A stretch of 34,883 nucleotides of DNA. Source: a virus. Made by a program: the position numbers and the translations under genes. The notes below the pieces were generated by a model. It had not been told where the DNA came from. It made no database searches and worked only from the letters and a program-made list of their open reading frames with translations. Where the stretch lies: the IMG/VR virus record IMGVR_UViG_3300045988_092951. The stretch is one strand, 5' to 3'. The first letter of the stretch is position 1; the number at the start of each line of letters is the position of its first letter. Positions 2,356 through 3,140 of this stretch are shown in pieces.

Positions 2356-2550
2356 CTATGAAGCCAATAATTCAGTTGAATCGTCTACTAAATAGTATTC
2401 GTCAAATAATTCCATAGCGGTTAGAAACAAAACATCATTCTTGATGCAACCGCTCTTATCAATTACACAACCACCTCGACCTTTGCATACTTCAGAGTAA
2501 CCAATACCATTAAGTTCGGCAATAGATTTTATCATTTCTTTACTTATCAT
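2356..2550 (-). CDS. 64-aa protein, middle gene of the cassette (candidate antitoxin/adaptor)
   Basis: GGAGGG RBS inside the 3' end of the upstream gene, and an ATGA start/stop overlap at 2547-2550. The C-terminus is acidic, aromatic and hydrophobic: VLFLTAMELFDEYYLVDDSTELLAS. Confidence 0.7.
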   Translation of the reverse strand: MISKEMIKSIAELNGIGYSEVCKGRGGCVIDKSGCIKNDVLFLTAMELFDEYYLVDDSTELLAS

Positions 2551-3140
2551 ATATAACCCTCCATACTAAAATCTGCAGCAAGACGTAAGTTTTCAATTAT
2601 ACTCTTATCATACACACATATTTGAGTTTCTATGCCAGACATTAAAAGAAAATTAGTTTTGTGATTAGACGAAAATTGCATATCCATACAAAATGAACAC
2701 ATAATACCTGCAATTTGAAATTGATTTGCGAAAGAATCAAATGTAAAACATCTCTTTCTTTTGGTAACTTGAATACTAAAGTCTTTTGAATTTCTATTCA
2801 ATCCTTTTGTAAAATCTAGACATATTCCATCGCTTTTTATCATTTTGTCCAAATCAAGGGCAAACTTTTTAAACTTTCTCAGATGTGCTGAATCTTCAAG
2901 ATTGTATAACTTCTCTTTATTCATGTCAGCCACAACAACGTCATAATTTGTTTTATACTTTTTACTTTTACTTACTGCCCATCGTTTGGCTTCTTCATAG
3001 CAAGGATAAAAATATATTCCGTGACCAAGCCAATGATCATCACTATCTCTGCGCTTCGGATCCATAAATCCATTGTCAACTATGTCAAAAGCCCATTCTT
3101 TCAATGTACCATGAAATACATTTATATAATTAAATTTCAA
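2547..3140 (-). CDS. PARP-like (H-Y-E class) ADP-ribosyltransferase-fold protein, 197 aa (candidate toxin/effector)
   Basis: TTG start with a GGTGA RBS. Three motifs are present: VFHGT (H10), GHGIYFY (Y43) and ETQICVYD (E171). They resemble PARP1 HGS, GKGIYFA and NEYIVYD. The H-to-Y spacing is 33 aa, against 34 aa in PARP1. Confidence 0.65.
   Translation of the reverse strand: MKFNYINVFHGTLKEWAFDIVDNGFMDPKRRDSDDHWLGHGIYFYPCYEEAKRWAVSKSKKYKTNYDVVVADMNKEKLYNLEDSAHLRKFKKFALDLDKMIKSDGICLDFTKGLNRNSKDFSIQVTKRKRCFTFDSFANQFQIAGIMCSFCMDMQFSSNHKTNFLLMSGIETQICVYDKSIIENLRLAADFSMEGYI

Follow-up and report, generated by a model that had tools for sequence, protein, structure and literature searches.

In the virus record IMGVR_UViG_3300045988_092951, a stretch of 34,883 nucleotides (nt) that is called the window in this text, one gene near the beginning encodes a 197-aa protein with the motifs of an ADP-ribosyltransferase (ART), and the question is what such an enzyme does in a phage genome and what it acts on. 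A preliminary description, made from the sequence alone, had presented it as a lone enzyme with an open target. This view has to be revised. On the minus strand the gene opens a row of three, followed by a 64-aa open reading frame (ORF) and a gene for a 132-aa SecB-like protein, and the first and third proteins match the models of a known antiphage system, PD-T4-9 or CmdTAC, in which the target of the E. coli toxin is known. We consider it likely that the 197-aa protein is the toxin of a CmdTAC-type toxin-antitoxin-chaperone (TAC) cassette, carried as lysogeny-expressed cargo at the end of a temperate Ruminococcus bicirculans phage that adjoins the attachment site (att). The cassette belongs to a known family, CmdTAC, and is not a new type of system; it is divergent, occurs very widely and has no such annotation in public records.

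PD-T4-9 was described as CmdTAC from the E. coli strains ECOR22 and O112ab:H26 (Vassallo et al. 2022, 2024: PMC9519451, PMC11618068; Mets et al., bioRxiv 10.1101/2024.02.24.581848). The toxins (accession numbers RCP66309.1 and WP_097333619.1) act on single-stranded RNA (mRNA), where they ADP-ribosylate adenine at N6 within GA dinucleotides; this activity blocks translation, and the two independent CmdT proteins both modify mRNA (PMC11618068; bioRxiv 10.1101/2024.02.24.581848). According to the CmdTAC papers, the systems are prophage-borne and CmdT belongs to the H-Y-[E,D,Q] ARTs, a clade that explicitly includes Gln variants; its Y41A mutant is inactive. CmdA helps to fold CmdT and neutralises it. 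The SecB homologue CmdC leaves the complex when the T4 capsid protein is made, whereupon CmdA is degraded in a reaction that needs ClpXP and a C-terminal Ala-Ala recognised by ClpX. The authors call a CmdTAC locus when matches to the CmdT and CmdC hidden Markov models lie within two genes, and they reported homologues in Gram-positive bacteria.

Among the PADLOC models, PD-T4-9_A was the top match of the toxin (E = 2.5e-7), its residues 33-182 being aligned with positions 29-168 of the 187-position profile, and PD-T4-9_C that of the chaperone (E = 2.2e-13). The only other PADLOC match to the toxin was PDC-M13B (E = 0.049), and no other system was significant. The calling rule, as tested with the PADLOC models, picks out the cassette, the SecB-like gene lying two genes downstream on the same strand. 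The same order of toxin, small ORF and SecB-like gene on one strand recurs in about 130 related loci, namely 62 of the 83 from genomes and metagenomes and 66 of 75 IMG/VR viral contigs, and PD-T4-9_A matches 70 of 91 toxin relatives as well as 32 of 39 further ones. The E. faecium plasmid pF39_2 (positions 1298-2740) carries a 184-aa toxin, a 155-aa ORF and a 135-aa SecB-like protein (3.8e-15 to PD-T4-9_C), directly after an N-acetylmuramoyl-L-alanine amidase.

Reading frame, family and fold of the toxin

The toxin gene is read on the reverse strand, a point that the preliminary description had missed. The plus-strand translation of 2547-3140 is interrupted by many stops and contains no ORF, which rules out that reading. 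A Shine-Dalgarno-like AAGGTGA (3151-3145) ends 4 nt before the TTG start. Some public gene calls begin 12 codons later, at L13, and shorten the protein to 185 aa, although the copies compared do not differ in their DNA at this place. We rejected the L13 start because H10 is invariant in the homologues, which makes the 197-aa reading the correct one, and because the Shine-Dalgarno-like sequence precedes the first TTG. In this frame the motifs listed earlier are all present exactly as given: VFHGT with H10 (codon 3113-3111), GHGIYFY with Y43 (3014-3012) and GIETQICVYD with E171 (2630-2628), the last also containing Q173 (2624-2622) and C175 (2618-2616). The spacing of 33 residues between H10 and Y43 is likewise borne out.

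An exhaustive phmmer search of 1.84 billion representative sequences (E <= 1e-3) delimited a family of 193 representative clusters, almost all of them 170–230 aa long and matched end to end, with only three clusters below 1e-30. In an alignment of 91 of these proteins H10, G39, G41, Y43 and C175 are invariant, H10 and Y43 being the toxin's invariant residues at the NAD site. When the 91 relatives were compared individually with Pfam, 48 matched PARP, 11 DUF3990 (counted at E <= 0.01), six ART-PolyVal, two exotoxin A and one diphtheria toxin. The toxin itself is matched by phrog_14664 (E = 4e-11); a scan of NCBIfam gave no match for it or for the 64-aa protein. The family profile could be aligned with PARP10, its best sequence-level match in the PDB, over yHGT...G.G.YF, and a PDB sequence search with the toxin alone returned only a spurious kinase match (E = 0.23).

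A resemblance to DUF3990 (PF13151), and the membership of that family in the ADP-ribosyl clan, had been put forward, and both proved right. The N-terminal pattern hHGT...G.G.YF...A..WA is common to the toxin and DUF3990, one relative (P0006) is named 'DUF3990 domain-containing protein' in UniRef, and the Pfam ART clan is listed with DUF3990 and exotoxin A among its members (PMC7955679). The relation is weak, however: DUF3990 is a sister family, and the toxin is no member of it.

An AlphaFold2 model built on 104 homologues reached a predicted local distance difference test (pLDDT) score of 92 and a predicted template modelling (pTM) score of 0.87. In this model H10 ends strand 1 and Y43 lies on strand 2, which is followed by two more strands. 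The middle of the protein, about 120 aa in which no recognisable resemblance had been seen, is not featureless: it contains an insert of two helices (residues 84–103 and 121–140) with a conserved R130-C131...D135 motif, common to the whole family. A strand (145–151), a less confident or flexible loop (152–169) and the strand bearing E171, Q173 and C175 (170–176) complete the fold. The comparison of a predicted structure with PARP catalytic domains, which the preliminary description had proposed, placed these domains first. PARP1 and PARP2 catalytic domains take the first 33 places among the Foldseek matches in the PDB, Tpt1 and exotoxin A come next, and the best matches are all ARTs, with no close solved structure found by Foldseek or by sequence search of the PDB. 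In BFVD the model matched ART-PolyVal-like and DarT-type phage proteins, the DarT-named match being weak (68 columns, E = 1.2e-2). The candidate identities DarT, Tpt1 and R-S-E toxin were rejected, as there were no family matches and the Tpt1 fold match covered only about 70 columns. Family conservation, the PARP matches of the relatives and the fold matches uphold the original assignment to the ARTs, and we regard the fold class, that of the H-Y-[E/D/Q] (PARP/diphtheria-toxin) clade, as settled.

The third residue of the active site is less clear. E171 is kept in only 60 of the 91 relatives (Q in 10, G, S, N or K in others), whereas Q173 is present in 86 of them and throughout a second alignment, of 104 sequences; almost every family sequence has at least one of the two. 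Four distant proteobacterial relatives have H in place of E171, and three of them keep Q173. Their strand reads H-[IT]-Q-[IL]-[SA]-I and that of a Streptococcus member A-K-Q-L-N-I, so that Q173 is a residue conserved at the level of the superfamily. If YNEYIVYD of PARP1 is aligned with ETQICVYD of the toxin on the common VYD, E988 falls opposite Q173; the corresponding strand of exotoxin A, which we take to read LETIL, would favour E171. Since the two residues are two positions apart on one strand, they should face the same side, and the choice rests on conservation and motif alignment, not on model geometry. On this basis we lean towards Q173 as the third residue of the triad, which is compatible with the H-Y-[E,D,Q] definition given for CmdT. 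From the H-Y-E signature originally proposed, H10 and Y43 are retained, and E171 gives way to Q173 as the favoured candidate.

The variability of E171, together with Pfam scores below the cut-offs and the general knowledge that some ARTs are less active as transferases with Gln at the third position, could also mean that the ART fold of the protein has degenerated and no longer transfers ADP-ribose, so that it would, for example, hydrolyse NAD+ as a glycohydrolase or only bind its ligands, or that the motif match is fortuitous. We think this very improbable: more than 100 diverse relatives all share H10, G39, G41 and Y43, with Q173 almost as constant, Gln variants belong to the clade by definition, and the natural null alleles described below hit the toxin gene only.

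Putative antitoxin, chaperone and proposed mode of action

The cassette stands out by its GC content of 30.8%, compared to 45.5% in the rest of the window. Judging from the overlap of its start with the toxin stop, the 64-aa ORF is translationally coupled to the toxin gene. The N-terminal part of its product, IKSIAELNGIGY, fits the family motif x-h-x-x-h-[AC]-[EK]-x-x-G-h; the C-terminal tail, FLTAMELFDEYYLVDDSTELLAS, is acidic and aromatic and ends in LAS. A phmmer search with this protein found only the small proteins of two other loci (L007, E = 2e-5; L004, E = 5e-4). Nearly all related loci have a small ORF at the syntenic position, 64–142 aa in length, with the N-terminal motif in common. 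In the loci that contain a chaperone gene, 52 of 57 small proteins end in AC (25), AA (18), VA (6) or AS (3). These ssrA-like C-termini may be the counterpart of the ClpXP-dependent Ala-Ala end of CmdA, and by the same analogy the acidic, aromatic LAS tail is what should be expected of a short element for chaperone addiction and degradation.

The 132-aa protein matches Pfam SecB above the 26-bit cut-off (E = 1e-10, 42.2 bits), but reaches only 36 bits with the housekeeping SecB models of NCBIfam (TIGR00809), below all of their cut-offs (103–277 bits). By these scores it is a specialised SecB-like protein that goes with a toxin-antitoxin module, not the housekeeping SecB.

The predicted cassette promoter is 100% conserved in six other copies. 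Sigma70-like matches are no more frequent in the region than in shuffled sequences, and the promoter is thus a prediction from position only. With this element and the hairpin behind the chaperone gene, the cassette is predicted to form a unit with its own promoter and terminator.

Some relatives deviate from this organization. Seventeen loci lack a SecB-like gene and have a toxin and, downstream of it, a small ORF with the same N-terminal motif. The proteins of these small ORFs tend to be longer (60–160 aa), and the 14 tails analysed are all strongly basic (pI ~9–12) and without AA/AC-type ends, six of them ending in KA. These loci look like a chaperone-independent variant. In a further locus (L142:1864-2895) a 343-aa ORF that matches the toxin profile is separated by 3 nt from the SecB-like gene; it may be a toxin-antitoxin fusion, or an artefact of assembly or frame. 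Proteobacterial plasmids (Bradyrhizobium, Acinetobacter, Catenovulum and Komagataeibacter) encode a related ART of ~195 aa, annotated as hypothetical and without SecB, which has H, Y and, in most cases, Q, and shows 18–21% identity to the window toxin when these sequences are aligned together. Except in Komagataeibacter, a 56–61-aa ORF precedes the ART gene, giving a reverse, antitoxin-first order.

By homology with E. coli CmdTAC, the cassette would work as follows. The 64-aa protein would bind and neutralise the toxin through its N-terminal part, and its LAS-ending tail would act as chaperone-addiction element and degron, shielded by a SecB-like tetramer. A superinfecting phage would make a protein that competes for the chaperone, as the capsid protein does in the case of T4, and the antitoxin would then be degraded, probably by ClpXP. 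The freed toxin would use NAD+ to ADP-ribosylate single-stranded RNA (mRNA), so that translation stops and the infection is aborted.

A number of observations weigh against the assignment to CmdTAC and have to be set against the matches above. The relationship between toxin and CmdT is weak in sequence, and their likeness was judged via the PADLOC profile. None of about 135 relatives scanned matched PD-T4-9_A better than E = 6e-11. The proteobacterial two-gene ARTs score about equally on this profile, and the toxin match therefore indicates a superfamily relationship, not orthology. The Pfam profiles PARP (PF00644; E = 2.7e-4, 21 bits, residues 6–87 only) and DUF3990 (E = 0.065, 13.4 bits) stay below their gathering cut-offs of 26.7 and 32.2 bits, and the Foldseek matches in the PDB are weak (E ~1e-3, TM score ~0.43). 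The putative antitoxin has no match in the Pfam, PADLOC, PHROG or NCBIfam libraries, including any antitoxin model. It is the shortest small protein of its family, 64 aa as compared to 121 aa in CmdA of O112ab:H26, with no detectable sequence similarity to the latter, and it ends in LAS instead of AA. Activity, target, trigger and protease are all carried over from E. coli CmdTAC by homology. No enterobacterial match came up when phages were searched by tblastn with the toxin and the chaperone, or plasmids with the toxin.

The distance from the characterised CmdT proteins also leaves room for the same toxin-antitoxin-chaperone logic with a substrate other than GA sites in mRNA, such as single-stranded DNA (as for DarT), structured RNA (tRNA or rRNA), the ends of RNA molecules or one of the translation proteins. 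PARP10 is a mono-ART of protein and RNA, the fold matches include exotoxin A with its substrate eEF2, an invariant C175 and the R130-C131 motif are peculiar to the clade, and related ARTs are generally known to change targets readily. We nevertheless regard another substrate as rather unlikely, since both E. coli CmdT proteins modify mRNA and the putative antitoxin is not one of the hydrolases, macrodomain or NADAR, that should accompany a DarT-like ART of DNA or guanine. In addition, the toxin is mildly basic (pI 8.4) and has 29 aromatic residues among its 197, and the CmdT paper illustrates conserved aromatic residues and an electrostatic surface. For the clade from Bacillota and gut phages as a whole it is possible, if doubtful, that the nucleic-acid substrate or the base or sequence specificity differs from N6 of adenine in GA, that a different phage protein is sensed via the ~25-residue tail, or both; this tail would be the shortest chaperone-addiction element of the family. 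Such a difference could be accommodated because the clade is at most ~45% identical to proteins outside the lineage and only marginally similar to CmdT, with an invariant Cys in its E-x-Q-I-C strand and a minimal antitoxin of 64 aa.

Prophage setting and natural copies

The features of the cassette and of its surroundings are compiled in Table 1. Three integrated copies (L001, L084 and L085) are 98.8–99.9% identical to the window from 3549 downwards, L084 and L085 to position 607 and L001 to its contig end at 734. On the other side they diverge into host DNA, which places att at this switch. The cassette thus is the last cargo before att, between the endolysin gene on one side and att and the integrase gene on the other. 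When the window was scanned for tRNA genes as possible att targets, none turned up. The window also contains a cI-type S24 repressor gene and, further on, terminase and capsid genes; together with integrase and endolysin, these identify it as a temperate phage genome.

Table 1. Features of the cassette and the neighbouring region of the window
Feature	Position	Strand	Basis
GH25-LysM endolysin	1066..1881	(+)	Glyco_hydro_25 E = 2e-32, LysM E = 2e-18
18-bp G+C-rich hairpin, likely bidirectional terminator	1889..1928		between convergent chaperone and endolysin genes
SecB-like chaperone gene, 132-aa CmdC-like protein	1941..2339	(-)	AGGAGG at 2350-2345
Putative antitoxin gene, 64-aa CmdA-like protein	2356..2550	(-)	ATG overlaps toxin stop (ATGA)
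Toxin gene, 197-aa CmdT-like ADP-ribosyltransferase	2547..3140	(-)	reverse-strand ORF 3140->2547, TTG start at 3140
Putative cassette promoter, TTGATA + 17-nt spacer + TG-extended TATAAT	3189..3217	(-)	consensus scan, 11/12 hexamer matches plus TG
Prophage/host junction (att) at ~3549/3550 and integrase terminator hairpin at 3557-3584	3549..3584		integrated copies; hairpin scan
Tyrosine integrase	3602..4777	(-)	Phage_integrase E = 1.6e-22
Zinc-ribbon + TM2-domain membrane protein	4954-5346	(-)	between integrase and cI-like repressor

Exact-sequence look-ups of the cassette proteins identified R. bicirculans as the host. In public records the toxin (MCQ4878269.1) and the 64-aa protein (MCQ4878268.1) are each called 'hypothetical protein' and the chaperone (MCQ4878267.1) 'protein-export chaperone SecB'. 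The exact toxin occurs on 376 contigs, the exact 64-aa protein and chaperone on at least 1,000 each. A nucleotide search of the cassette against GenBank phages gave no match, and the structural region of the window matches only short phage contigs from human faeces. The cassette is at least 99.4% identical in prophages with different endolysin, holin and tail modules (loci L161-L168), so it either travels with the att-proximal module or is swapped between phages. In most of these prophages (L162, L163, L166 and L167) it adjoins one and the same R. bicirculans site, marked by genes for a serine hydrolase, DUF389, SecG and RNase R.

Two independent toxin-null alleles were found in three of 17 full-length natural copies. 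One is a 1-nt deletion in a T run at 2748, causing a frameshift after C131 (metagenome assemblies L084 and L085), the other a nonsense codon at position 50 in a 2.9-Mb contig (L164). The antitoxin and chaperone genes are intact in both, and null alleles restricted to the toxin fit a toxic gene product. That such alleles persist in nature could also be taken as a sign that the cassette is mainly an addiction or stabilisation module, which kills cells that lose the prophage, and not a defence coupled to a sensor. Its place next to att at the prophage end and its classic type II features, namely translational coupling and a labile-looking antitoxin, would agree with such a role. On the other hand, the SecB-type chaperone senses phage in both TAC systems examined for sensing, CmdTAC and HigBAC, and the swapping among unlike prophage backbones is typical of defence cargo. 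We therefore judge addiction to be an improbable main function, although the two roles are not mutually exclusive.

Elsewhere in the window, the zinc-ribbon/TM2 protein gene could be another gene expressed in lysogeny. Other patches of low GC content (34–40% versus ~46%) are located at 6001-8000, 19001-20000 and 24001-25000. Two minus-strand ORFs at 6770-7225 and 7287-7859 had no significant Pfam match, the second having a weak one to DUF6556; they may be additional cargo genes.

Significance and comparison with known systems

The assignment of the cassette to the CmdTAC family gives a probable function to its three genes in R. bicirculans, a common human gut commensal. It suggests that CmdTAC-like defence cassettes, with an ART that by homology would act on mRNA, circulate as att-proximal cargo among different gut prophages. 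The compact Gram-positive version with its 64-aa antitoxin is suited for testing how general chaperone sensing and RNA ADP-ribosylation are, and the better conservation of Q173 sharpens the active-site assignment for the family. What novelty remains concerns a possible difference in substrate specificity, the minimal size of the antitoxin and the choice between Q173 and E171.

In its fold, the toxin is like PARP10, PARP1/2 and exotoxin A or diphtheria toxin, with a split beta-sheet that binds NAD+, a His that ends strand 1 and G-x-G-x-Y-F on strand 2. It differs from the PARP domains in that the two-helix insert, specific to the toxin family, replaces their regulatory and acceptor elements, and in that the third site is E-x-Q-I-C. 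Like DarTG, the cassette is a toxin-antitoxin module with an ART of the H-Y-E clade; DarT modifies nucleic acid, and DarTG defends against phage. DarT, however, modifies thymidine (or guanosine) in single-stranded DNA, and the DarTG antitoxin is a macrodomain hydrolase, with no chaperone involved. None of the three cassette genes matched DarT or a macrodomain (DarG) in Pfam or PADLOC.

With the SecB-dependent TAC systems (HigBAC of M. tuberculosis and of E. coli, and MqsRAC) the cassette has in common that the SecB-like chaperone is encoded last and would be expected to guard an antitoxin tail that contains aromatic residues and is liable to aggregation or degradation. The toxins HigB and MqsR are RNases, not ARTs, and their antitoxins are helix-turn-helix proteins. 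The closest parallel is CmdTAC. Here, a Gram-positive anaerobe of the gut serves as host, and the genes of the carrier are those of a long-tailed temperate phage instead of a P2-like one. As in CmdTAC, however, the genes are arranged in the order toxin, small (putative) antitoxin, SecB-like protein (1,214 bp in ECOR22, 1,200 bp in the window), the toxin is an ART of ~190 aa from the H-Y-[E,D,Q] clade with its catalytic Tyr at nearly the same position (Y41 in CmdT, Y43 here), the putative antitoxin has an ssrA-like C-terminus, and the whole is accessory cargo borne by a prophage.

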